A stretch of DNA of 64,000 bases. Source: Bacteroidales bacterium (GTDB taxonomy: Bacteria > Bacteroidota > Bacteroidia > Bacteroidales > WCHB1-69). Under the pieces are notes generated by a model. That model ran no database searches and was not told the origin of the DNA. It was given only the letters and a program-made list of their open reading frames with translations. Positions 17,751 through 38,648 of the stretch are shown in pieces. Location of the stretch: contig JAFZXM010000013.1 in NCBI GenBank assembly GCA_017616775.1, forward strand, positions 9,124 to 73,123. The letters run 5' to 3'. Within the stretch, counting starts at the first letter, position 1, and every line of letters begins with the position of its first letter. Made by a program: the position numbers and the translations under genes.

Positions 17751-18710
17751 ATGAATAAAATGAAAAAAGTATATTATATTACCTTGATAAGCTTGTTGGT
17801 AGTGGCTGTAACGGCGTGTTCGGGAAGAAGAAAAAAAGCCGATGCATACGGTTCTTTTGAAGCTTCCGAATTGCTTCTTTCGGCACAGGCCGACGGTCAA
17901 TTGATGGATTTCGGTGTTACCATAGGGACAAAAATACCGGCAGGCACTTACATAGCATCAATAGACAGCACACAGTTGCTGTTGCAGCGGGAGCAGTTGG
18001 AATCGCAGATGAATGCTTTTTTGGCACAATATAGCATAATCCCCAAAAAATATATATCATGGCAAGACAGCCTGGTAGCGGTGGAACAACAATTATATGC
18101 CATCACCGAAAAAGCGCGGGATGAGCAGTCTTTGGCAGACAGTGTTGAAATTTGTAAAATGTTGAAACAGCATTTGACCGATACCATTGGCATTTGGCAA
18201 GACAAACAATCCGCACAATTGCAAGCCTTGCTGGCGCAAGCTTCACAAATGTATGTGCAACTCAGGCAATTGAACAATGCCATAGCCAAATGTAACATAG
18301 TAAGTCCCATAACAGGCACATTGTTATGCAAATATGTCAACCGGTATGAGCTTGTCGGCAAAGGCTGTCCCATAGCCAAAATGGCCGATTTGGAAGAAAT
18401 GACCTTAAAAGTGTTTGTGAGCGAGAAACAGCTGGCGGACATTCATTTAGGCGATACCTGCACGGTGAGGATAGATAAGGGTAAAAAAGATTTGAAACAA
18501 TATACGGGAAATATCATCTGGATTTCCGATCAATCGGAATTCACCCCCAAAATGATTCAAACTAAAGACGAGAGGGTGAATTTGGTGTATGCTATTAAAA
18601 TTACAGTGAAAAACGACGGCAGCATTAAAATAGGCATGCCCGGCGAAGCCAAATTCAAAGCTACGGACAATGGAAAAAAGAAAAGAAATAGAAATAAAAA
18701 GTCTAAGTAA
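17751..18710 (+). CDS. HlyD family efflux periplasmic adaptor (lipoprotein)
   Basis: Lipobox VTAC; DAYGSFEA, SPITG, SEFTPK.IQTKDERVNLVYAIK, GMPG. Confidence 0.9.
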   Translation: MNKMKKVYYITLISLLVVAVTACSGRRKKADAYGSFEASELLLSAQADGQLMDFGVTIGTKIPAGTYIASIDSTQLLLQREQLESQMNAFLAQYSIIPKKYISWQDSLVAVEQQLYAITEKARDEQSLADSVEICKMLKQHLTDTIGIWQDKQSAQLQALLAQASQMYVQLRQLNNAIAKCNIVSPITGTLLCKYVNRYELVGKGCPIAKMADLEEMTLKVFVSEKQLADIHLGDTCTVRIDKGKKDLKQYTGNIIWISDQSEFTPKMIQTKDERVNLVYAIKITVKNDGSIKIGMPGEAKFKATDNGKKKRNRNKKSK

Positions 18711-19584
18711 ATCTTTCGGAAAGGTAAAGGCGCTGGATAATGTGTCTTTATCGGTGGAAAAAGGGGAATTGTTCGGATTGATAGGGCCGGACGGTGCCGG
18801 TAAATCCACACTTTTCAATCTGTTGGTTACTTTATTGAATCCCGATGGCGGCCAAGCCGAAATAGCCGGAATGGATTTGTTGCAGGATTATAAAAAAATA
18901 CGGAAAATAATAGGCTATCTGCCCGGTCAGTTTTCTTTATACGGAGATTTGAGCTGTATGGAAAATCTGGAATTCTTTGCAACACTCTACGGTGAAAATA
19001 TAGAAGACAATTATGAGTTGATAAGGCCGATATGGGAGCAGTTGTTGCCTTTTAAAAACAGAAAGGCTTCTGCGCTTTCGGGGGGAATGAAGCAAAAATT
19101 AGCCCTGTGTTGTGCTTTGGTTCATAAACCCGAAATCCTGTTTTTGGATGAACCCACCACCGGTGTCGATCCCGTGAGCCGTAAGGAATTGTGGGGAATA
19201 TTACAACGCCTGAAAGAAGACAATATCACCGTGTTTGTATCTACTTCGTATATGGATGAAGCCACATTGTGCAATCGTATTGCACTTATACAAAACGGAA
19301 AAATTCTCGGGTGCGATACTCCCGACAATATAAAATCCGCCTTTAAAGGCAATTTGTTTTCCATACAAACTGATGATATCTACCGTATGCTGCAATATTT
19401 GGACAATTATCCGGCAGAAGACATATATGCCAGCGGGCAATGTGTGAATGTAGTGCTTAAACATATTGAAGATGCGGAAAATCTGTCGGCGTATATCCAT
19501 CAAAGCGGCATAGCTGTTAATGAGTGTAAATTTGTGAAACCTGCCATAGAAGACTGTTTTATTCAATTGATGAGAAATACATAA
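18670..19584 (+). CDS. ABC transporter ATP-binding protein
   Basis: GPDGAGKST, LSGGMKQKL, LDEPTTGVDP. Confidence 0.93.
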   Translation: MEKRKEIEIKSLSKSFGKVKALDNVSLSVEKGELFGLIGPDGAGKSTLFNLLVTLLNPDGGQAEIAGMDLLQDYKKIRKIIGYLPGQFSLYGDLSCMENLEFFATLYGENIEDNYELIRPIWEQLLPFKNRKASALSGGMKQKLALCCALVHKPEILFLDEPTTGVDPVSRKELWGILQRLKEDNITVFVSTSYMDEATLCNRIALIQNGKILGCDTPDNIKSAFKGNLFSIQTDDIYRMLQYLDNYPAEDIYASGQCVNVVLKHIEDAENLSAYIHQSGIAVNECKFVKPAIEDCFIQLMRNT

Positions 19585-19722: not shown

Positions 19723-20250
19723 ATGAAAAGATTAGTTTTAACACTCACATTAGTATTAGGTATTGCTGCAACCATGATAGCACAACCGAGAGCAATCGGC
19801 GGCCGTTTGGGTAATCCTATTGAATTCAGTTATCAACATGGTATCGGCTCAGGTTTCTTGGAAATTGATGCAGGTGCATTTTTCTATCCTGCTTTAGGAG
19901 TAGAAGCTGCAGTAGTTTATGATTGGATATTTGCATCTCCTAATTGGACACCCAAAGGTACTTGGGATTGGTATGCAGGTGTCGGTGGAGCAGGCGGCTT
20001 TGGTTTCCGCGAACATTGGCATCATAAAGATCCCGAACATGTGGATCACTCTTGGTATTATACAGGTGTGGCAGGACAAATAGGTTTGTCTTACACATTC
20101 TGGTTCCCGTTGCAACTCAGTGTGGATTTTCGTCCTACTATAGGTCCGGCATTTTATTATGATTATGAATACGGTCATTACAGACCTACATTCAATGCCT
20201 GGGGATTTTTTAACTTTGCTATAGGAGTTCGTTATTCTTTCGGCAATTAA
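19723..20250 (+). CDS. small outer-membrane beta-barrel protein
   Basis: Signal peptide ending AQ; WDWYAGVG, PLQLSVDFRP; terminal strand IGVRYSF. Confidence 0.8.
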   Translation: MKRLVLTLTLVLGIAATMIAQPRAIGGRLGNPIEFSYQHGIGSGFLEIDAGAFFYPALGVEAAVVYDWIFASPNWTPKGTWDWYAGVGGAGGFGFREHWHHKDPEHVDHSWYYTGVAGQIGLSYTFWFPLQLSVDFRPTIGPAFYYDYEYGHYRPTFNAWGFFNFAIGVRYSFGN

Positions 20251-20266
20251 CAGATGAAAAACACTT

Positions 20267-20298
20267 AAAAAAGAGCACTTCAGGTGCTCTTTTTTTTT
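20267..20298 (+). terminator. intrinsic terminator
   Basis: AAAAAAGAGCAC-TTCAG-GTGCTCTTTTTTTTT, starting 17 nt after the stop. Confidence 0.85.
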
Positions 20299-20502
20299 AT
20301 ATTGACTAACAGGCAGAAAAACAATATGGCACAAAATATTGCGGCTATGCGGGGAAATTACAATATTTTTTGCTCATAAATTCAACAAATAAAGCAACTT
20401 TTGAATGGAATAACAAATTTAATACTTATTTTAATCGGACAAGAATAATTTTATATATGAAAAAATAATATCTTTGCAAAAAAATATTAAAAGGTAAAAA
20501 AT

Positions 20503-21018
20503 ATGAAAATATCGGTAAAAACAATATCGGCAGCAGTTCTTTTTGTATGTTTGTCACAATTGTCCTTTGCCCAATATAAGCACGGCATAGGGGGAGTGGC
20601 AGGAAGCATGAACGGCTTTTCTTATAAAACGGTGATAACCGGTAATTTTGCAATAAGTGTGGATTTGGGCGTAAAACTTTGTGTGGGAGCCTTTGATAAT
20701 ATCAACATCAGGGTTTTTGACGTTGAAGTCAACCCCGATTTTATGTATCAAGCCAATGCTGCAGGCGGTTTGTATTGGTTTGTGGGCGGAGGTTTTGGTT
20801 TGGGTTATGCGTTTAATGATTTTTGGCGTTATGGTTACGGTGGAGAGGTGTTGGGAAAATTCGGTATTAACGCCATAGGCGGTTTGGAATATAAATTCAA
20901 TATTCCCCTTGCCCTTCAATTTGATTTTCGTCCGGGTTTCGGCATGATATTTGGAAATCATGTTACAGAGCCCTATTTCGATTGGGGTTTGAATTTGAGC
21001 CTAAGGTATGCGTTTTAA
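20503..21018 (+). CDS. small outer-membrane beta-barrel protein (paralog of 19723..20250)
   Basis: Signal peptide; LYWFVGGG, GINAIGGLEYKF, PLALQFDFRPG; terminal LSLRYAF. Confidence 0.8.
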   Translation: MKISVKTISAAVLFVCLSQLSFAQYKHGIGGVAGSMNGFSYKTVITGNFAISVDLGVKLCVGAFDNINIRVFDVEVNPDFMYQANAAGGLYWFVGGGFGLGYAFNDFWRYGYGGEVLGKFGINAIGGLEYKFNIPLALQFDFRPGFGMIFGNHVTEPYFDWGLNLSLRYAF

Positions 21019-21041
21019 CATAAAATAACAAATAGATACCG

Positions 21042-21512
21042 GTGAAGATAAAGATATTAATAATAGGCGTTATAGCCGGTTGGTGTAGCCTGTTGCATGC
21101 ACAAGTAAATATAGATGTGGTGTATAAAGACACCTTAAAAGACAATGACGTATATGAACATGTCAATAAGTTTTATTTTGAAGACAGCAATTTGGTGGTC
21201 GCCTACGAAGACGGAACCACTGCGGATATAGTCGTAAACGGCATACATAAGTTATTAGTGCATTCAACGCTATCTGTTGAAACCATTGCAGAAGGAAAAC
21301 ACATAATTATTTATCCCAATCCTGCCAATGACAGGCTTTATTTGGCATCAGCAGAAGAACAAAATGTACATGTAGCCATTTATTCCATTCAAGGACAACT
21401 GCTCAAAGAGCAGCTAATGAGCACCTTGCAGGCAATTGACATATCCGCTCTTTCTCGCGGTTTGTATATGATAAAAATAGATAATACAACTTATAAATTC
21501 AGCAAATTATGA
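21042..21512 (+). CDS. small T9SS type A sorting-domain protein
   Basis: Signal peptide (LHAQ), ~55-aa beta-rich domain, CTD IYPNPAND..IYSIQGQL..IDISALSRGLYMIK..KFSKL. Confidence 0.85.
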   Translation: MKIKILIIGVIAGWCSLLHAQVNIDVVYKDTLKDNDVYEHVNKFYFEDSNLVVAYEDGTTADIVVNGIHKLLVHSTLSVETIAEGKHIIIYPNPANDRLYLASAEEQNVHVAIYSIQGQLLKEQLMSTLQAIDISALSRGLYMIKIDNTTYKFSKL

Positions 21513-24190
21513 AAAAAGCAGGTGTTTTAGTGGCAATATTGCTGATAATAGGTTGTATATCGGCACAAAATAAGGTAGTATTCTATAATGACGGGAATAT
21601 TATTTATCAATCGGAGATAAATAATGTGGATAGCGTATGCTTTAGAAACAATATTTCCATTGTTCACAACAATAAGGAAACCATCAACTTTCAGTATCCC
21701 GTAGCGGGTATAGACAGTATAGTGTTTGTAGATGGAACCACAATAGACGATGATGACAGCACCAATACCGGCGGAGAGGTGGATACGGCAACTATGGTAT
21801 CAATTATCTTTGGTCAGGATACGGCATACATTCACAATCCTTATGCCGATTCGGGGGTGGTGATTACCACTTCGGGAGCATTCGTAACAGTGCAGGCTGC
21901 TATGGGCAAGCAGAACATAGTGTATTATCTGTCAGGTGCTACCGACAATGGAGCATTGTCACTTACCAGTGATGAAAAAATCATTTTATGGATGGACGGC
22001 GTCAGCATACATAATCCGAAAGGAGCTGCCATAAAAATACCTTATGATGTAAAAGTATCGGCAGTGTTGAACGACAGCACCGTCAGTGTGTTGGAAGATG
22101 ATACTGCAAGTACCGATAAAGCTGCTTTTGACAGCAAAGGACAAATTATTTTTTCCGGCATGGGAACACTTAATGTTATCGGGAATGCCAAACATGGTAT
22201 TTTTAGTAGTGATTATGTGAAAGTGCAAAGCGGAAATATCAATATCATCAGGGCAATCAAAGACGGCATTCATGGTGATTATTTTCAAATGTATGCCGGA
22301 ACGGTTACTATCAATGCCGGCACGGGCATAGACGGAGAAACAGGTTTTGTCGGCATATACGGAGGAGATGTAACCATTACTACCGCTCAAAATGACGGCA
22401 AATCCATCAAATGTGACAGCATAATAGATATATCCGGCGGCACACTTACCCTTACCGTTAGCGGCAATCAGGCAAAAGGTCTTAAGGCGGGTAAAAGTGT
22501 TTATTTCAAAGGTGGAAATACGTATATCACCGCTACGGGAACCACTGTTTTGGAAGCGGAAGGCAATGGATATAATCCATCTTTTTGTTCAGCTGTAAGT
22601 GCCAAAGAAGATGTCAATATTTATTTCGGTGCCGATATGACCATAGTATGTGACAGCAACAATCAAGGTGGCAAAGCAATTTCCGCAGACGGAAATATCA
22701 ACGTATATGGAGGTAATTTGAATATTTCCGTTGCCGGAGCAAGTGGAGAATATGTCAATGCAAATAATATAAATGATAGTTACAATTCTGTTTGTTTGAA
22801 GAGTAATAAAAATGTAAATATCCATGGCGGAACGTTTGTTTTATCGGCATTAGGCGACGGTTCAAAAGGAATATCAGCCGATAGTAGTGTGCTTATAACA
22901 AAGGGAAATCTCACTTTTTATGCAGTAGGGAAAGAATCCAAAGGAATAAAAGCAGATCATGTTGTCAGCATAACAGGGGGGAAAATAGGTATTACCGCAT
23001 CAGGCGAGACGGTGATAGCAAATTATGAAACATCGTTTTGTAGCGGTATAAAAAGTGACGGAAATATTTATATTGCCGATAGTGCCGATATTACCATTAA
23101 TTGTACTTCTACCAATAATGGAGGAAAGGCTCTTAAAGCAAATGGCAATATCACAATAAACGGAGGAACACTTTTGCTTAATACTGCCGGTTCGGGCAGT
23201 ACTTACACTTTAGCCGGCGGAACAAAAGACGGCTATTCAAGTGCTTGCATGAAAGCGGACGGAAATATATATCTTAAGGCAGGAAATATCTCTTGTACCA
23301 GCAGTGGTGCCGGCGGAAAAGGTATCAATGCCGAAGGAAGTATTGTAATAGGTGACAGTACTTATGCCGATAGTGCGTTGGTACTTTCTGTAACTACATC
23401 GGGGCAAAGGTTTACTATTAGTTCATCCTCCGGAGGCGGTGGATGGACTCCACCCGGAGGAAACACCGGCAATTATTCCAATCCCAAAGGTATAAAAAGT
23501 ACGGGCAATCTAATAATAAACAATGGTATAATACGGGTAAATTGCACACAATCAGGCACCGAAGGCGGTGAATGTATAGAAAGCAAATCTTCTCTTATTA
23601 TCAACGGAGGCAATATAGAGGCATCTTCTGTTTATGACGATGCTATCAATGCTGCTGTAAATTTAACTATTAATGGTGGTTTAATATATGCTACCTCAGG
23701 GCATAACGACGGCATAGATTGCAACGGAACCATGAATATTAACGGAGGATTGGCTATTTCAGCCGGTGCAAGAGCCCCGGAAGAAGGTTTTGATTGCGAC
23801 AATAATACTTTTACCATTACCGGTGGTATTATAGTAGGTACCGGTGGAGCTACCAGCAGTCCCAATGCAGGAACGCAAAAAGCATTGAAATATTCTGCCA
23901 CACAAGGCACGGCTATTTGTATATATAATTCCTCCAATCAAGCGGTTCTTACCATGCAATTGCCGACAATGGCTTCCGGCGGAGGCGGTGGATGGAATCC
24001 CGGCGGTGGTAGCGGTATGGTAGTGTTAATGTCTTCACCCTTGTTTACTTCAGGAAGCTATACTTTAAAATATGGCGGTACCATTACCGGCGGCACATCG
24101 TTTCACGGATATTATACCAATGCCACATATAGCAACGGCTCTTCAAAAACTTTTACTATAGGGAATAATGTATTAACAACTATTCAATAA
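21509..24190 (+). CDS. DUF4353 (Cthe_2159-like) carbohydrate-binding beta-helix protein
   Basis: YYLSG..DNG.L, KHGIFS.D and many KGIK(A/S)D..I.I.GG coils; DDAINA, NDGIDCNG, EEGFDCD. Confidence 0.88.
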   Translation: MKKAGVLVAILLIIGCISAQNKVVFYNDGNIIYQSEINNVDSVCFRNNISIVHNNKETINFQYPVAGIDSIVFVDGTTIDDDDSTNTGGEVDTATMVSIIFGQDTAYIHNPYADSGVVITTSGAFVTVQAAMGKQNIVYYLSGATDNGALSLTSDEKIILWMDGVSIHNPKGAAIKIPYDVKVSAVLNDSTVSVLEDDTASTDKAAFDSKGQIIFSGMGTLNVIGNAKHGIFSSDYVKVQSGNINIIRAIKDGIHGDYFQMYAGTVTINAGTGIDGETGFVGIYGGDVTITTAQNDGKSIKCDSIIDISGGTLTLTVSGNQAKGLKAGKSVYFKGGNTYITATGTTVLEAEGNGYNPSFCSAVSAKEDVNIYFGADMTIVCDSNNQGGKAISADGNINVYGGNLNISVAGASGEYVNANNINDSYNSVCLKSNKNVNIHGGTFVLSALGDGSKGISADSSVLITKGNLTFYAVGKESKGIKADHVVSITGGKIGITASGETVIANYETSFCSGIKSDGNIYIADSADITINCTSTNNGGKALKANGNITINGGTLLLNTAGSGSTYTLAGGTKDGYSSACMKADGNIYLKAGNISCTSSGAGGKGINAEGSIVIGDSTYADSALVLSVTTSGQRFTISSSSGGGGWTPPGGNTGNYSNPKGIKSTGNLIINNGIIRVNCTQSGTEGGECIESKSSLIINGGNIEASSVYDDAINAAVNLTINGGLIYATSGHNDGIDCNGTMNINGGLAISAGARAPEEGFDCDNNTFTITGGIIVGTGGATSSPNAGTQKALKYSATQGTAICIYNSSNQAVLTMQLPTMASGGGGGWNPGGGSGMVVLMSSPLFTSGSYTLKYGGTITGGTSFHGYYTNATYSNGSSKTFTIGNNVLTTIQ

Positions 24191-24906
24191 TGGATAAGAT
24201 AGTGATAAAACTCATAAAATTCATTGTGTGCTTGCTCTTGATGTGTATAGTATGTGCTTGTGACAAGTCAGGAGAAGGCGGCAATGCAACCATTCAAGGA
24301 AAGATTATGCTGGTGCAGCACCCCAACGATGATTACACATTAGCAACAGATACGGTGGTGGCTGCCAAAACCGATGTGTTCATTGTATATGGAGATAATG
24401 AAATGTACGATGATGACCAAGAAACGTCTCAAGACGGGCTGTATCAATTTAAATATTTGAAAAAAGGCATTTATACCATATTCGCCTATTCCACACTTGC
24501 TACGGGAGAAAAAATAGCCGTATCGCAAACGGTGGAAGTAAAAGATAAACTCACTATAGTGCCCACTATCTATATCCACGAAGGAAAAGCGTATGGAACA
24601 TCCATGGTAAGAGGACAAGTGTGGGCAACTTACGAGCACAATGGCAGTGATAGAGGCAGCGGATGGGCATATGAGCATAGAGTGTATATCAAAAAACAAA
24701 ACCATCCTTATCATTTTGATAATGTAAGGGTAGGTGAAGACGGATATTTTTACTTTCAGCAATTATTGCCCGGAACCTACGAAATTTTCACCACCACCGA
24801 AGATGATAATGAAGTACCTTCTTTGGTGTCGCAAACCATTACCATAACCGAAGCAGGGAAAATATATACGCTCGAGAAAATATTTTATGTAAACATAAAT
24901 GTATAA
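24190..24906 (+). CDS. lipoprotein with two tandem prealbumin/carboxypeptidase-regulatory-like domains
   Basis: Lipobox VCAC; internal repeat DG.YQFKYL.KG.YTIF / DG.FYFQQL.PG.YEIF. Confidence 0.75.
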   Translation: MDKIVIKLIKFIVCLLLMCIVCACDKSGEGGNATIQGKIMLVQHPNDDYTLATDTVVAAKTDVFIVYGDNEMYDDDQETSQDGLYQFKYLKKGIYTIFAYSTLATGEKIAVSQTVEVKDKLTIVPTIYIHEGKAYGTSMVRGQVWATYEHNGSDRGSGWAYEHRVYIKKQNHPYHFDNVRVGEDGYFYFQQLLPGTYEIFTTTEDDNEVPSLVSQTITITEAGKIYTLEKIFYVNINV

Positions 24907-24908
24907 TC

Positions 24909-25322
24909 ATGAAGTTGAAAATAGGAGGAATAGGTGTATTATTATGTTTTATTTGTGTAGTGGTACAGGCACAAACCGTACAGGAAAAACGGGAACGCCG
25001 TGCCAACCTAACCCTTAAAGAATGGAATACACTGGCAGGGCACAAAACCCGTTATTTGGACCATATCACCAAATACGACGCCAAAGGTTTTAAAATAGAA
25101 GAGATAGAATATGCCAGCTACGGACAAAAATATCGTATCACTTACGAATACAATGATGCGGGAAAATGTATCAGGGAAGTGGAATACGACAGCAAAAACA
25201 AACCCATACGCATAAGAAAATTTGAATATTATGCCGACGGGAGCAAAAAAAGGCAATATAATTATTTGCCCAACGGCAAACTGATAAGCAGCAAAGAATT
25301 TGAATATATATTCAGTAAATAA
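24909..25322 (+). CDS. secreted basic beta-meander (YD/MORN-like repeat) protein
   Basis: Signal peptide ending AQ; repeated YD.KG..I.E.EY / YND.GK.I.E.EY / YYADGS.K units. Confidence 0.7.
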   Translation: MKLKIGGIGVLLCFICVVVQAQTVQEKRERRANLTLKEWNTLAGHKTRYLDHITKYDAKGFKIEEIEYASYGQKYRITYEYNDAGKCIREVEYDSKNKPIRIRKFEYYADGSKKRQYNYLPNGKLISSKEFEYIFSK

Positions 25323-25324
25323 TT

Positions 25325-26089
25325 GTGACAGAGATAGAAAGAGTTTTACATTTGTTTAAACCCATTTCTCTTGAAGAAATGAGTGCCGTAAAACTGATGA
25401 ATAGGGTAGATACCAAGTATATGATATCCCTGAGTCAGTTGGGAGATATATTGAATCAATTGCAAGCTCATTATTATGTACAACAAGTGTGTGATGAATG
25501 TATAATACCCTACAGCACTTTATATTATGATACAGAAGATGTGCAAATGTATATAGCGCATCACAATAGAAAGTTATGCAGGCAAAAACTACGTTCCCGT
25601 ATATACGGACTTACCGAAAATGTATTTTGTGAAGTAAAGCGAAAAAACAATCACGGACGCACCAAAAAAAAACGTATAGCCATTAAAAAGGAAGAATGGG
25701 AGAATATGTTGCAGCAACCCTATATTGTTGAATTTGTGCAGCAATATTTACCATATTCCATTTCGCTTTTACAGCCGCAAGTGCAAACCGATTTCAATCG
25801 GATTACTTTGGTCAATTATTCCAAAACGGAACGCCTGACCATAGATAAGGATGTGAATTTTTATAACCATGTTACCGGCATGCATGCCGATGCAGGGAAT
25901 TTGGTCATCATGGAGTTAAAACAAGATGCCCGCAAAAAGTCAATGGTCAAACAGGTGCTTTTTGATATGCGTATCAAACCGCATAAAATAAGCAAATATT
26001 GTTTGGGTACCGTTCTCACACGCCCGCAAGTAAAAGCCAATAGATTTAAGAAAAAAATCCGATTCATAGAAGAATTGAATAGTATTTAA
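25325..26089 (+). CDS. VTC (polyphosphate polymerase, TTM fold) domain protein
   Basis: LMNRVDTKY, TLYYDT, RQKLRSR.Y, FCEVK.K, RITL, ERLTID, IMELK, KISKYC. Confidence 0.92.
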   Translation: MTEIERVLHLFKPISLEEMSAVKLMNRVDTKYMISLSQLGDILNQLQAHYYVQQVCDECIIPYSTLYYDTEDVQMYIAHHNRKLCRQKLRSRIYGLTENVFCEVKRKNNHGRTKKKRIAIKKEEWENMLQQPYIVEFVQQYLPYSISLLQPQVQTDFNRITLVNYSKTERLTIDKDVNFYNHVTGMHADAGNLVIMELKQDARKKSMVKQVLFDMRIKPHKISKYCLGTVLTRPQVKANRFKKKIRFIEELNSI

Positions 26090-26104
26090 TTTAAATAAAG
26101 TTTT

Positions 26105-26842
26105 ATGTACAATTTTTTTAATATCCAACAAGATTTTGACCCTTCCATAGCAAGGGAATTTTCAAAAACACAAGAGATATCTTCTTTTAATGATATTTTG
26201 GGCATACCGTTGATACAAAAGGAAAGTCTGCTTACATTATTGGTCTTGTTTGCCTTTAATTTATTGATATGCTGGATAATAGTTCACTTTTTTTATTATA
26301 GAAAAAGCCGGCGTACCGATTATTATTTTACCTTTGTTCTTTTCAGCATAACGGTCTTCTTGCTGATGTTTTTGCTTAACAACGTGAATCTGGGCATGGG
26401 TTTTGCCTTGGGTTTGTTCGCCATATTCAGTATGATACGCTATCGTACCGAAACGGTGCCTATTCGGGAAATGACCTACTTGTTTGTCATCATCGGCATA
26501 TCGGTCATTAATGGATTGGCCATGACGCACGGATATATCAATCTGTTGATTATTAATACTTTATTTATATTGTTGATATGGATATTCGACGGAAACAAGG
26601 CCTTGCAACATCAAGCTGCAAAAATAATATTGTACGATAAAATAGAATTGATAAAATTCGGAAAAGAAGAAGAACTTTTGGCAGATTTAAAAGAGCGTAC
26701 CGGCTTGGAGATTTTTAAATTGGAAATAGGGCATGTGGATTTTTTGAGGGATGTGGCTTATATAAAAATATATTACAAGCCTTCTGCCAATGAAACGAAC
26801 AGCATAGATACCATGATAAAGCATAAAAATTTTATGGAATAG
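26105..26842 (+). CDS. DUF4956 inner-membrane protein
   Basis: Several TM helices; GFALGLFAIFSMIRYRT, REMTYLF, DLKERTGL, DFLRD. Confidence 0.92.
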   Translation: MYNFFNIQQDFDPSIAREFSKTQEISSFNDILGIPLIQKESLLTLLVLFAFNLLICWIIVHFFYYRKSRRTDYYFTFVLFSITVFLLMFLLNNVNLGMGFALGLFAIFSMIRYRTETVPIREMTYLFVIIGISVINGLAMTHGYINLLIINTLFILLIWIFDGNKALQHQAAKIILYDKIELIKFGKEEELLADLKERTGLEIFKLEIGHVDFLRDVAYIKIYYKPSANETNSIDTMIKHKNFME

Positions 26843-26866
26843 ATACTGACAAAATATTATACATGT

Positions 26867-27547
26867 ATGAATAGTGCTTGTTTACAAACCAAACAAATAC
26901 CGGTGATATTGTTGCTGATGTGCGTGTGTTGTCTGCAGGCACAAAACATTGAATTTGGCGGTATATTCGGTGTGGAATACGAACGGGAGTTGAAAAGGAA
27001 TTTCCATTTATCGGTGGAAAGTGAAGCCAAAATCAGACATAATTTTACCGATTTTCATCGCTTGAAGGCGGGAGCGGGATTAAATTATGCTTTTTGGAAC
27101 AAACGCATTAAGATAGACGGAATGGTAAATTATCTGTTGGCACACAAAAAATCATATTACGAAAATCGTTGCAGGATAAACGTATCCTTAAGTTATACCG
27201 AAAGAATAAGGCGTTGGAAACTTTCTTACAGAATAGCCTCGCAATTTTTGTTTTACCAAACGCAAAAGAGCGAACATCCCTATAATCCTAAAATATATTT
27301 ACGCAATAAATTGCGGATAGAATATAAGTTTGTAAACCAACCTGTAAATTTGTATCTGTCCACAGAATTTTTTTGGAGAATGTATAAAAATTATGTGGTG
27401 GACAAATGGCGTACCGTATTGGGGGTAACATATAGGATTAACAAACAGCATCATCTGGATTTTTATCTTCAAAGCGATAACGAAGTACAGGTAAAAAAAC
27501 GGGATAATATTTTTAGTGCAGGTGTGGCTTATTCTTTTAAGCATTGA
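26867..27547 (+). CDS. DUF2490 outer-membrane beta-barrel protein
   Basis: Signal peptide; amphipathic strands, LRNKL.IEY, P...Y.S.EFF, R...G..Y.I.K; terminal GVAYSF. Confidence 0.82.
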   Translation: MNSACLQTKQIPVILLLMCVCCLQAQNIEFGGIFGVEYERELKRNFHLSVESEAKIRHNFTDFHRLKAGAGLNYAFWNKRIKIDGMVNYLLAHKKSYYENRCRINVSLSYTERIRRWKLSYRIASQFLFYQTQKSEHPYNPKIYLRNKLRIEYKFVNQPVNLYLSTEFFWRMYKNYVVDKWRTVLGVTYRINKQHHLDFYLQSDNEVQVKKRDNIFSAGVAYSFKH

Positions 27548-36278: not shown

Positions 36279-38648
36279 TTATTGTTTTACTATTTTTTGA
36301 ATCCGGTTATTGCATTTAACTATATAAACACCGGCTGATAAATTGTCCATGGAAATAATGCCTTTATGGTTGGAAACGGGAATATTCCGAATCAGTTTGC
36401 CGGTAATGTCATACAAATAAGCAGTGGTGTTGTCCCAATCGGGAGTGTATATATATGCTTGAGAGCAAGTGGGGTTAGGATATACTTGCAAAGCATTGTT
36501 GATGGTGCCGGAATAGTCGTCTATATTTACATGGTCAAAATCGGCAGAGTTGACCATTTGTGTTCCGTATTGCAATTCCACATAGTTTGTATAGTTATTG
36601 TTATTGGAAAGCACCACATAGCTTTTTCCCGATTTGTGCACGGGTATGGAGAAAGTGCCGTGCGATAAAGCACCAAAGTTATAATCGGCATTGCCGGTGA
36701 TTTTGCCTGATTTAAAATTGGCGATATCGGCTTCGCTTACTACATAGGCGTTCACAGAGGCTGCGGTGGAAGTGCGTTCATAAAATGAAGATTGTTGTCC
36801 GTCAACGGGATTGTTACCGGTGGTAACGTTGGAAGCATTGATGGTTATTTGTAAACTATGGTCGGCATCGTATCTGTTTTGGTCGGAGGTGATATTGTTT
36901 CTGCTTGATGTAGCCGCACTCGGAAATCTGAACGAAAGCGGATATTCTTTTTTCGCTATGGTGTTGGCTGAAGTTATCAGTTGGTATACATTTCCGGATG
37001 TGGTAGGGAAAGATCCGAATTTGGGATGATATATTTTCATATAATATTTTTTGCCGGTACCCAATTGTACGTTTATTTCACCTTGGGCATTGGTCCATAA
37101 ATATCCGGCAGGCATAATATAGGTGGTGCCGTATTGGGTGTTGGTGGAATATAAATTTACTCTGGCGCCATCCACGGGCACACCGTCAGGGTCGGTGATG
37201 GTAAGTTTCATGGTACAAGCGGATGCTTGGGAATAAGTGGCAGACATATTGTACAGATATCCGCTGGGCACATATCCTTGTACCAGGGAGCTGTTCCATC
37301 CGTATCCTCCGTTGGTTTGCATATTGGTCATACCCCAATAATAGGGTCTTCCTTCGGAGCATCCTCCGCGGAAGAATTCAAAGTGATGCCATGTGGCATC
37401 GCCTCCGTCGTGTATGGCTGCCCACACGTGGTCATCACAAAAATCGCCGACATGTATGCAGGGGATGAGGGCGGTACGTGCTGCGGCAACAACCAGAAGG
37501 GCGTCTTCATGGCAATTGCCTACATGTTTCCACGCAATATGATTGGGTTGGGAAGGCCGGTAATCTTCGGAAGAAGTAACATCTTGCGGAATGCAGCGTG
37601 AAGCCCAGTTGCCCAAAACGTCCAATGCGCTTTGCGATGCGGAAAAATTACGGTTAAAGAAATAGATGCTGGGGTTTTCATTCCACAAATAGGTGGGCAT
37701 TTGCATCAATTGGCCCAAACGCGGAATGGTGTCTATGCGAATGGTATCGTATTTGCCGGAGGCGTCAACCACCTTGTAACCCCATGTGTTCACATTGTTA
37801 TAACTTCTGTCTGCCGTATCGGCGGTGTTAACGGCTTGGGAATAATTGTTCCACAGATAGTCTCTCCAAAAATAACCCCAAGTCCGCTGAGAGGTGATAG
37901 ACGTCAGGTTATCGGTAACATATACTCCTTCTTGTTCTATTTTCGGCATGACTATAAATTCATAGTAATAGTATTTGTCTATGCTGCGCCATATATAGTT
38001 GCTGCCTTGTTTAATGCAATATTCGGTGGTGGTATACCAATCTCCGGATGCAGTGTCGCCCGATTCCACCAAACGAACGTATTTGAGAGAATCGGCAATA
38101 AGATATATCATTGCGGCATCACTGACTAACTGATTCCAATCGCTGAAACGGGATGCGCTGAGAACTTCTTTGGGTAAATAGGTGAGCACATAGGCAACTT
38201 CATCCAAATATTTTTTAGGGGTGGCATTGATTAAACCAACCATTTTGGAGCGGGTGTTGTCATTGGATTGTTGAAAGCGGAAGCGCAAATCATATTGCAG
38301 CCATTGAGGTACACGCTTAATGGCATTTTCAATAGCGGTGCCGAGTGTGCCGAAATGAGCACTGTCTTCGGTAACGGTGTTGTTTTCCACAACAAAAATA
38401 ACAGATTCACCCGGAGCGAGCAGACGTTTGCCGTTCATGGTGACTTTTTTCATGGCGTTAGTTTGCCATGGAGAGGAGGGTATATATTGGGCTTGGGGAA
38501 GAGCTATCCCTTCTATTGTTTCATTGGCAACAACGGAAGGATTTTTTATGCCTGCAATGTGGTCATTGGCTTTTTCTATGGTAATATTTTGAGCATAAAT
38601 GCCCATAGAACATAAAGTTGCGAGAAATAAAAAAACGATTCTTTTCAT
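36279..38648 (-). CDS. T9SS-secreted transglutaminase-like protein
   Basis: Signal peptide; GNCHEDA...AARTALIP, DHVWA, WHHFE; DPDGVPVDGARV domain; CTD VYPNPT..YDITGKL..LSAGVYIV..KIVK. Confidence 0.75.
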   Translation of the reverse strand: MKRIVFLFLATLCSMGIYAQNITIEKANDHIAGIKNPSVVANETIEGIALPQAQYIPSSPWQTNAMKKVTMNGKRLLAPGESVIFVVENNTVTEDSAHFGTLGTAIENAIKRVPQWLQYDLRFRFQQSNDNTRSKMVGLINATPKKYLDEVAYVLTYLPKEVLSASRFSDWNQLVSDAAMIYLIADSLKYVRLVESGDTASGDWYTTTEYCIKQGSNYIWRSIDKYYYYEFIVMPKIEQEGVYVTDNLTSITSQRTWGYFWRDYLWNNYSQAVNTADTADRSYNNVNTWGYKVVDASGKYDTIRIDTIPRLGQLMQMPTYLWNENPSIYFFNRNFSASQSALDVLGNWASRCIPQDVTSSEDYRPSQPNHIAWKHVGNCHEDALLVVAAARTALIPCIHVGDFCDDHVWAAIHDGGDATWHHFEFFRGGCSEGRPYYWGMTNMQTNGGYGWNSSLVQGYVPSGYLYNMSATYSQASACTMKLTITDPDGVPVDGARVNLYSTNTQYGTTYIMPAGYLWTNAQGEINVQLGTGKKYYMKIYHPKFGSFPTTSGNVYQLITSANTIAKKEYPLSFRFPSAATSSRNNITSDQNRYDADHSLQITINASNVTTGNNPVDGQQSSFYERTSTAASVNAYVVSEADIANFKSGKITGNADYNFGALSHGTFSIPVHKSGKSYVVLSNNNNYTNYVELQYGTQMVNSADFDHVNIDDYSGTINNALQVYPNPTCSQAYIYTPDWDNTTAYLYDITGKLIRNIPVSNHKGIISMDNLSAGVYIVKCNNRIQKIVKQ

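Follow-up and report, generated by a model that had tools for sequence, protein, structure and literature searches.

A conserved VTC–DUF4956–DUF2490 gene module of Bacteroidales as a candidate system for polyphosphate synthesis and delivery to the cell envelope

In bacteria, the accepted sources of polyphosphate are PPK1 and PPK2, and the polymer is taken to remain intracellular. The described systems closest to the locus treated here are of other kinds. In yeast, the tunnel residues of Vtc4, a member of the VTC complex (Vtc4/Vtc3/Vtc1; 3g3q, 8i6v), coordinate Mn-triphosphate, and mutating any of them lowers cellular polyphosphate, according to an excerpt of a preprint (bioRxiv 10.1101/2023.01.27.525886). 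In Gram-positive bacteria, cotH, polyphosphate-polymerase and DUF4956 (+DUF4832) genes lie beside pel loci (passage in PMC7112168; Whitfield et al, 2020). Further points of comparison are the KdgM-family porins and synthase-dependent exopolymer secretion (alginate, cellulose, poly-N-acetylglucosamine [PNAG], and Pel). The subject of this analysis is a cluster of eight genes at 20503–27547 of a 64,000-nucleotide stretch of a Bacteroidales genome (GenBank assembly GCA_017616775.1, contig JAFZXM010000013.1, positions 9,124–73,123), hereafter the window; it lies on contig C40 of a genome of 2.1 Mb with a completeness of 93.5%. Numbered in reading direction, five genes for predicted secreted proteins and lipoproteins (genes 1–5) are followed by those for a VTC-domain protein (gene 6), a DUF4956 membrane protein (gene 7), and a DUF2490 barrel (gene 8). 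The cluster was confirmed and is conserved, with VTC–DUF4956–DUF2490 as the conserved core; in this lineage, genes 2–5 extend that core as accessories. An earlier note on this DNA had proposed all eight genes as a trans-envelope system that synthesizes, exports and displays polyphosphate; a smaller version of that proposal is tentatively preferred here.

Families were annotated with Pfam and NCBIfam profiles, of which NCBIfam contributes the tail of the type IX secretion system (T9SS) alone. Among the family names that the earlier note had given, the T9SS tail, Cthe_2159 (the former DUF4353), VTC, DUF4956 and DUF2490 are backed by Pfam, and genes 1 and 5 are left without a Pfam family. Gene 6 matches the Pfam family VTC (PF09359) at E = 7.7e-30 and 104.6 bits against a cut-off of 23, over profile positions 1–231 of 235, and gives no CYTH match in Pfam at E up to 0.01. 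As the earlier note had it, the protein carries no signal peptide; nor does it contain a hydrophobic segment (highest 19-residue Kyte–Doolittle mean, 0.81), and its isoelectric point (pI) is 9.5. When the PDB was searched with the single sequence, nothing relevant was returned. Profiles built from 14 Bacteroidales sequences and from 50 diverse representatives, the latter chosen from the 3614 representative clusters of the VTC family (E up to 0.001), matched only Vtc4 and Vtc2 among PDB sequences (best E, 3.3e-4). For the comparison of residues, the Vtc4 chain was numbered as index + 185, which reproduces K200, R264, R266, K281, K294, Y359, E426, S457, and K458. In the profile alignments, K200, R264, R266, and K281 of Vtc4 correspond to K31, R90, R92, and K105 of gene 6, and R361, E426, S457, and K458 correspond to R159, E197, S223, and K224. 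The C-terminal segment of the alignment is low-scoring when taken alone, yet its E-x-K and S-K motifs coincide. Gene 6 thereby shares with the yeast complex the Pfam VTC tunnel domain and eight of the nine residues that hold triphosphate and Mn in Vtc4, and these eight are invariant in all 50 diverse and all 81 Bacteroidales sequences. The same invariance across the 81 Bacteroidales sequences was observed for all 18 tunnel positions examined. K458, which is among the residues kept, is the single residue absent from the inactive Vtc2 and Vtc3 in the excerpt of the preprint mentioned above, and the R264A/R266A/E426N exchange was used for inactivating the yeast VTC complex (passage in PMC9911596). 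That the ligand residues are kept and invariant argues for a polymerase-type tunnel under strong constraint in the bacterial protein. Judged from its sequence, gene 6 is a predicted cytoplasmic VTC (triphosphate tunnel) protein and a candidate polyphosphate polymerase; close relatives are already named “polyphosphate polymerase domain-containing protein” by NCBI.

The gene directly 3′ of it, gene 7, matches DUF4956 in Pfam at 1.5e-54. Its structural model, built from 14 sequences, is of moderate quality (predicted local distance difference test [pLDDT] score, 68) and contains helices at residues 39–64, 71–91, 94–114, 120–140, and 144–164, followed by a C-terminal alpha/beta domain (171–224). 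The multi-helix membrane protein that had been proposed for this position is thus borne out, by five predicted helices as well as by the position of its gene relative to that for VTC (see below). The alignment of the family displays an invariant GxxxGLFAxF...RYRT(E) motif at helix 3 and, following helix 1, a YYRKSRR loop. The positive-inside rule would place both basic loops, together with the C-terminal domain, on the cytoplasmic side; four homologues (L025, L026, L028, and L029) carry signal-like extensions at the N-terminus, which agrees with this placement. A cytoplasmic-side enzyme beside a dedicated membrane protein, here predicted, is also the arrangement of the yeast complex, and the YYRKSRR and RYRTE loops recall the positive belt described for it in a passage of PMC9911596.

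A partnership of DUF4956 with the other proteins of the module is supported by fusions. Among the longer DUF4956 relatives found, 12 of 15 hold both DUF4956 and DUF2490, and one further protein, known from a single record (P0277), has VTC fused to DUF4956; the VTC-side search found no longer fused VTC forms, which is weak evidence. The DUF4956–DUF2490 proteins form twelve clusters (P0273, P0275, P0276, and P0278–P0286) of 460–517 amino acids (aa), each in a single frame. In P0273 and P0280, the DUF4956 C-terminus continues directly into an internal Met and a signal peptide, and such frames may represent a cleaved polyprotein or two genes without an intervening stop codon. A protein of a different build was also observed: P0274 (924 aa, single record) comprises an ABC-transporter ATPase, one membrane helix, a long middle region, and a complete C-terminal DUF4956.

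For gene 8, DUF2490 (5.3e-14) is the only Pfam family reported at E up to 0.01. The protein was modeled with confidence (pLDDT 91.6) as a barrel, and in a comparison over 48,161 chains the best structural matches were VhGalP (8xua; Z 16.0, root-mean-square deviation [rmsd] 3.0, 177 residues aligned), KdgM (4pr7; Z 16.0, rmsd 2.5, 157 aligned), and NanC (2wjr; Z 15.8, rmsd 3.5, 180 aligned). The mature protein has a pI of 9.9 and a net charge of +17, and by a crude count of alternate residues ∼22 Lys or Arg versus 14 Asp or Glu face the lumen. The Lys/Arg-rich barrel of the earlier note is in this way upheld by a confident cationic model, with porins for linear acidic oligomers as its best matches. 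According to the model, DUF2490 is a cationic outer-membrane barrel closest to acidic-oligosaccharide porins; like KdgM-family porins, it would be a small monomeric barrel of matching size with many basic residues facing the lumen, which suits a linear polyanion. Unlike them, it gives no match to their sequence family. KdgM porins import sugars, and the likeness implies no direction of transport for DUF2490, which appears as a putative porin in part of a TCDB-based work, its function being unassigned there.

How far the cluster is conserved was surveyed in the 80 closest of 573 confirmed VTC relatives (42–56% identity), nearly all from metagenome-assembled genomes of Bacteroidales, the sample being biased to this order because it is limited to the closest relatives. 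To these, 13 loci from relatives' genomes were added, and all open reading frames (ORFs) of the fetched loci were scanned with the eight proteins and with hidden Markov models (HMMs) iterated from them. The DUF4956 gene was found 3′ of VTC in 77 of the 80 survey loci, two of the three misses being contig ends, and VTC was followed by DUF4956 in all 13 loci of the relatives' genomes. DUF2490 was present in 69 survey loci (contig ends explain 4 of the 11 misses), and gene 5 in 57, as well as in 9 of the 13 relatives' loci. The remaining genes were met less regularly. Cthe_2159 was found in 44/80 loci, in 42 of them on the VTC strand and within 8 kb, so that 36 loci hold the core without it; the small T9SS-tail protein was found in 21/80, mostly directly 5′ of the Cthe_2159 gene; and the gene 4 lipoprotein in 14/80. 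The commonest orders were g3-g5-g6-g7-g8 (16 loci), g5-g6-g7-g8 (13), g6-g7-g8-g2-g3 (11), and g4-g5-g6-g7-g8 (9), that is, the beta-helix gene lies 5′ of the core in one lineage and 3′ in another (16 versus 11 loci). In a third arrangement (L114:2029-6355, plus strand), DUF4956 and VTC are followed by a 1016-aa right-handed Beta_helix protein. The order of the window from gene 2 to gene 8 was found again in L038, L048, L035 (where a contig end cuts it), and, in another genus, L021. Genes outside the module are unrelated housekeeping genes that vary by locus. In a wider sample, the VTC protein query matched in 17 of 41 relatives' genomes, and 149 of the 301 genomes sampled across the order contain a match to the Pfam family VTC.

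The eight-gene unit of the earlier note is therefore a co-conserved module that is smaller than eight genes. Its proposed first component, gene 1, was found in none of the 80 survey loci, is adjacent to the module only in two genomes of the same genus, and is a paralogue of the gene upstream. Genes 2–4, likewise proposed as components, are variable, lie 3′ of the core in another lineage, and are missing in the closest relatives found (G005 and G007; 78% and 63% identity), which have only g1-g5-g6-g7 with the same HlyD-ABC-paralogue synteny 5′ of them. The gene content of these two genomes indicates that gene 1 is a genus-specific neighbor, that genes 2–4 and gene 8 come and go in blocks, and that the outer-membrane barrel is not always encoded beside the core.

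Gene 1 encodes a secreted, Gly- and aromatic-rich protein with the C-terminus ...RYAF, which is probably a small outer-membrane barrel. Its paralogue is encoded by the upstream ORF at 19723–20250 (plus strand; connected by phmmer via the G005 copy at E 1.7e-11), and the two have the appearance of small barrels of the outer membrane from a Bacteroidota family without a name. The atlas look-alikes of gene 1 are Bacteroidota hypothetical proteins of which a minority of members carry OMP_b-brl families, which is a lead only. The upstream ORF itself ends at a strong terminator (Table 1). The secreted product of gene 2 carries a T9SS type A C-terminal sorting domain at residues 90–154 (PF18962, 3.2e-15; TIGR04183, 1.8e-12), and T9SS machinery is present in the genome (GldM at 6.7e-33). 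With 66 sorting-domain matches, secreted cargo makes up a very large share for a genome of this size. One such match, at ∼36279–36485 on the minus strand of the window (G000:C40:45402-45608), stands in a 796-aa frame broken by one TAA, which may represent either a disrupted cargo gene or two separate genes.

Gene 3, which has no sequence similarity to gene 2, matches PF14262 (Cthe_2159) at 9.4e-52 in five stretches and the solved structures 4peu/4phb at 3.8e-7; it has a lipoprotein-like signal (LLIIGC) and, like DUF2490, is the sole member of its family in this genome. Gene 4, with a lipobox (VCAC) followed by DKSGEGG and sub-threshold matches to SdrD_B, CarboxypepD_reg and Y_Y_Y, encodes a predicted lipoprotein with two probable beta-sandwich domains. 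The product of gene 5 has a mature pI of 9.4 and a net charge of +8, and its gene lies directly 5′ of VTC. At least 1245 relatives form an unnamed family, a few of which show weak RHS_repeat, TEN_YD-shell or DUF2963 matches; on these weak signals, this basic secreted protein may have YD/RHS-like repeats. Neither gene 4 nor gene 5 has solved relatives by sequence.

The layout of the cluster itself was reproduced exactly as first described: eight ORFs on the plus strand, with junctions of 23, −4, −1, 2, 2, 15, and 24 nt according to the ORF map, three of which were checked directly in the DNA sequence. The features are listed in Table 1. A terminator within the cluster had been said to be lacking, and indeed only two weak plus-strand hairpins with 5-pair stems are found inside it (at 25788 and 26392), with no strong terminator on this strand; the terminator count of the region is at chance (10 versus 6.8 ± 3.0). 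The promoter claim stands in part. The TAnnTTTG motif is present at 20469, as had been noted, but it shows no enrichment across the window (101 occurrences versus 84 ± 8.5 in shuffles), and seven further plus-strand copies lie within the cluster (20546, 20643, 21805, 25347, 26329, 27325, and 27345), which leaves room for internal promoters. A single promoter at 20469 driving the whole cluster is a plausible candidate. Among the sequencing runs listed as containing this DNA, none is recorded as RNA. A sigma-70 promoter scan, whose model is not of the Bacteroidota type, was at chance (41 versus 34.2 ± 5.4).

Table 1. Positions of the cluster's genes and flanking signals in the window.
Feature	Position	Strand	Remarks
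Intrinsic-terminator-like hairpin	20267..20295	+	13 pairs, 4 G-C, T run; closes upstream gene, 5′ boundary of unit
TATCTTTG, candidate Bacteroidota −7 promoter element	20469..20476	+	27 nt 5′ of first ATG
Gene 1, small secreted protein	20503..21018	+	171 aa
Gene 2, T9SS-sorted protein	21042..21512	+	156 aa
Gene 3, Cthe_2159 beta-helix	21509..24190	+	893 aa
Gene 4, lipoprotein	24190..24906	+	238 aa
Gene 5, basic secreted protein	24909..25322	+	137 aa
Gene 6, VTC-domain protein	25325..26089	+	254 aa
Gene 7, DUF4956 protein	26105..26842	+	245 aa
Gene 8, DUF2490 barrel	26867..27547	+	226 aa

Farther upstream, genes for an HlyD-family adaptor and an ABC ATPase (17751–19584, plus strand) overlap by 41 nt, with no permease gene directly 3′ of them. 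They were considered as parts of the module and rejected: the terminator and another gene intervene, and HlyD was found in 1/80 loci, where it was non-adjacent. Their synteny with the VTC module is kept within the genus only.

The earlier note had also stated that the cluster lacks a CotH kinase. None is indeed encoded in it, but the genome contains one elsewhere (417 aa, contig C34, unlinked to the cluster), and the presence of CotH tracks that of VTC among relatives. In the 41 relatives, both were found in 13 genomes, VTC only in 4 (one of them 71% complete), CotH only in 6, and neither in 18, which corresponds to an odds ratio of 9.75 (Fisher p 0.0016) among genomes that, being related, are not independent. 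Within the genus, the four CotH-positive genomes, including that of the window, are all VTC-positive, and the three VTC-negative ones are all without a CotH match; a fifth VTC-positive genome, G002 (71% complete), gave no CotH match. Physical linkage is rare: with two CotH queries in phmmer, which divergent CotH may escape, no CotH was found in the 80 survey loci, and among the 13 loci from relatives' genomes, two (L022 and L029, the latter with CotH upstream) show CotH and the module linked. In L022, a 1066-aa protein with lamin-tail, chitobiase-C, CotH kinase, Listeria-Bacteroides repeat, and T9SS sorting domains (L022:3736-6936, plus strand) is encoded directly 5′ of a g4-g5-VTC-DUF4956-DUF2490 block. 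The basic N-terminus and one hydrophobic helix of the genome's own CotH indicate that its kinase domain should face the outside of the cytoplasm. Its gene lies 3′ of a gene for a calcineurin-like metallophosphoesterase and 5′ of an opposite-strand gene for a PAP2 phosphatase, possibly an extracytoplasmic kinase/phosphatase set (contig C34, L033:6627-10071).

The Gram-positive cassette at pel loci resembles the present module in that a VTC–DUF4956 pair, of putative function in both cases, is linked to extracytoplasmic proteins and is accompanied by CotH, here in 13 of 17 VTC-positive relatives. It differs in that CotH is here encoded on another contig rather than adjacently and no pel genes are nearby, that the host has two membranes, and that the module here further includes DUF2490, a periplasmic protein with putative YD repeats, Cthe_2159, and a protein sorted by the T9SS. 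Elsewhere, VTC domain and CotH occur together in an excerpt of a Clostridium perfringens gene table, and the genetically tractable Bacteroides thetaiotaomicron, whose genome matches VTC, CotH, Cthe_2159, and DUF2490, has BT3498-99 listed as DUF4956 and DUF2490 in a table row of PMC10434189. An annotation phrase for the module also appears in a proteomics table row of PMC5817204.

Taken together, these data are best accommodated, at a probability of roughly 0.45 and thus somewhat short of even odds, by a module that makes polyphosphate at the inner membrane and hands the chain to the envelope. The VTC enzyme would polymerize the γ-phosphate of ATP into polyphosphate at the inner membrane face while docked on the basic cytoplasmic loops of DUF4956. 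The latter, probably as an oligomer, would move the chain into the periplasm, where it would be carried or held by the basic protein of gene 5 and by the KdgM-like barrel, so that it could reach surface proteins. The predicted locations agree with the earlier idea of one part per compartment. Of the export system then proposed, the co-conserved module, the tunnel, the membrane partner, and the cationic barrel are retained, whereas gene 1, genes 2–4 as fixed parts, and an obvious surface polyanion binder are not, and no likeness of the membrane partner to the yeast channel was detected. In its layout only, the cluster resembles synthase-dependent exopolymer secretion, with polymerase, inner-membrane partner, periplasmic helpers, and outer-membrane barrel in one gene cluster. 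Unlike in those systems, no glycosyltransferase, cyclic di-GMP receptor or tetratricopeptide-repeat scaffold was found among the eight proteins with Pfam and NCBIfam; the barrel is much smaller, and the polymer would be inorganic. From the yeast complex, the module would differ in adding an outer-membrane barrel and periplasmic and surface proteins, the proposed target being the envelope, not the vacuole.

Several observations weigh against this proposal. In the tunnel, every sequence of the Bacteroidales set has two additional acidic residues, D29 (T198 in Vtc4) and E169 (V372). Tunnel enzymes that act as hydrolases typically have such surplus acidic residues in the tunnel. The ninth ligand, Tyr359 of Vtc4, is Phe157 in gene 6 and Phe in 81/81 sequences, and Y359F lowers polyphosphate in yeast (excerpt of bioRxiv 10.1101/2023.01.27.525886). 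Gene 6 consists of the VTC domain alone, with neither the SPX domain nor the fused three-helix membrane domain of the yeast enzyme. The DUF4956 model, moderate as it is, appears to resemble no solved channel: Foldseek returned no match at E up to 0.001 for the whole model and weak, non-significant ACT- or ferredoxin-like rows for the C-terminal domain, and VIA-align returned generic helical bundles only, so that a likeness of the five helices and alpha/beta domain to Vtc1 or to the yeast VTC channel is not detectable by either method. For the barrel, Foldseek yielded generic barrels, and autotransporter barrels of the same size are within about 1 to 2 Z units of the porin matches; moreover, an excerpt of a 2026 preprint describes buried salt-bridge networks in 238 DUF2490 models, and the lumen may be closed. 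The barrel gene is also not constant beside the core, as it is missing in the closest relatives found. The Cthe_2159 protein, cast by the earlier note as a surface polyanion binder, is not an obvious one: it is acidic (pI 4.8, net charge −22) and could bind a polyanion only via metal ions, and the one relative for which binding was tested, the solved Cthe_2159 protein, has cellulose and polygalacturonic acid as ligands and resembles PL9 pectate lyases (passages in PMC6712302). A literature search, with subscription journals outside its coverage, found no functional study of any bacterial member.

The distribution of PPK counts partly for the proposal and partly against it. In its favor, neither PPK1 nor PPK2 nor Ppx-GppA was detected in this genome at its completeness of 93.5%. 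PPK1 and PPK2 would have the same product as VTC, made from a nucleotide triphosphate, but are of unrelated folds, and their product stays cytoplasmic. Against it, VTC was considered as a substitute for PPK1, and this notion was rejected for lack of complementarity: among the 41 relatives, both were found in 6 genomes, VTC only in 11, PPK1 only in 7, and neither in 17 (Fisher p 0.74). VTC and PPK1 are therefore independent among these relatives, and VTC is not simply a replacement of PPK1.

The residues of the tunnel that speak against a polymerase, that is, Phe for Y359 and the invariant D29 and E169, would fit a VTC-like enzyme that converts or hydrolyzes a triphosphate (ATP, tripolyphosphate or short polyphosphate), with DUF4956 as an anchor or regulator and the envelope parts taking up or sensing a phosphate-rich or acidic compound, the flow being inward. 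The tunnel superfamily also includes hydrolases and cyclases, and the best barrel matches, KdgM, NanC, and VhGalP, are uptake porins. On the other side, gene 6 scores 104.6 bits against Pfam VTC, CYTH giving no match in Pfam at E up to 0.01, its profiles match only Vtc4 and Vtc2 in the PDB, and the residue that marks active Vtc4 against the inactive Vtc2 and Vtc3, K458, is invariant. Moreover, a dedicated five-helix membrane partner, encoded in 77/80 loci, is not evidently needed by a soluble hydrolase. Such an enzyme is considered unlikely here, although far from negligible.

A second alternative accepts polyphosphate synthesis and denies its export, polyphosphate remaining a cytoplasmic store to which DUF4956 contributes as a tether or regulator through its alpha/beta domain, the envelope proteins being separate and linked for regulation. 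A store would need a synthase other than PPK1 and PPK2, which were not found in this genome; DUF4956 has no recognizable channel fold; its C-terminal domain gives weak, non-significant ACT-like regulatory matches; and neither DUF2490 nor genes 2–4 lie beside the core in the closest relatives found. What makes this distinctly improbable is the company that the core keeps. DUF2490 lies beside it in 69/80 loci and is one predicted protein with DUF4956 in 12 clusters, both DUF2490 and Cthe_2159 occur genome-wide only here and in single copy, and extracytoplasmic beta-helix or CotH genes adjoin the core in three different orders. Handling of an acidic glycan (pectin-like oligogalacturonate or a capsule), with Cthe_2159 binding it, the KdgM-like barrel conducting it, and VTC and DUF4956 modifying or energizing the process, would agree with the ligands and PL9-like fold of the solved Cthe_2159 protein, with a barrel closest to oligogalacturonate and sialic-acid porins, with the presence of the window's DNA in gut metagenome runs, and with the Gram-positive genes adjoining pel polysaccharide loci, but is likewise improbable given that the conserved module contains no glycoside hydrolase, lyase, SusC/D pair or sugar transporter (those in the flanks vary by locus), that 36/80 loci hold the core without Cthe_2159, and that the likeness among 12-stranded barrels is generic.

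If polyphosphate is indeed made by this module and handed to the envelope, an overlooked polyphosphate pathway would exist in abundant gut and rumen bacteria, and this would account for DUF4956, DUF2490, and many of the exported CotH kinases. A more specific version is rather improbable, namely, that polyphosphate is threaded via DUF4956 and the KdgM-like barrel to serve as an extracytoplasmic phosphoryl or energy donor that feeds membrane-anchored or T9SS-secreted CotH kinases, with Cthe_2159 holding the chain via metal ions. Were it to be true, the module would represent a third way for bacteria to obtain polyphosphate and the first pathway dedicated to exporting an inorganic polymer. In either case, if polyphosphate reaches the surface, these bacteria might be a source of extracellular polyphosphate in the gut.

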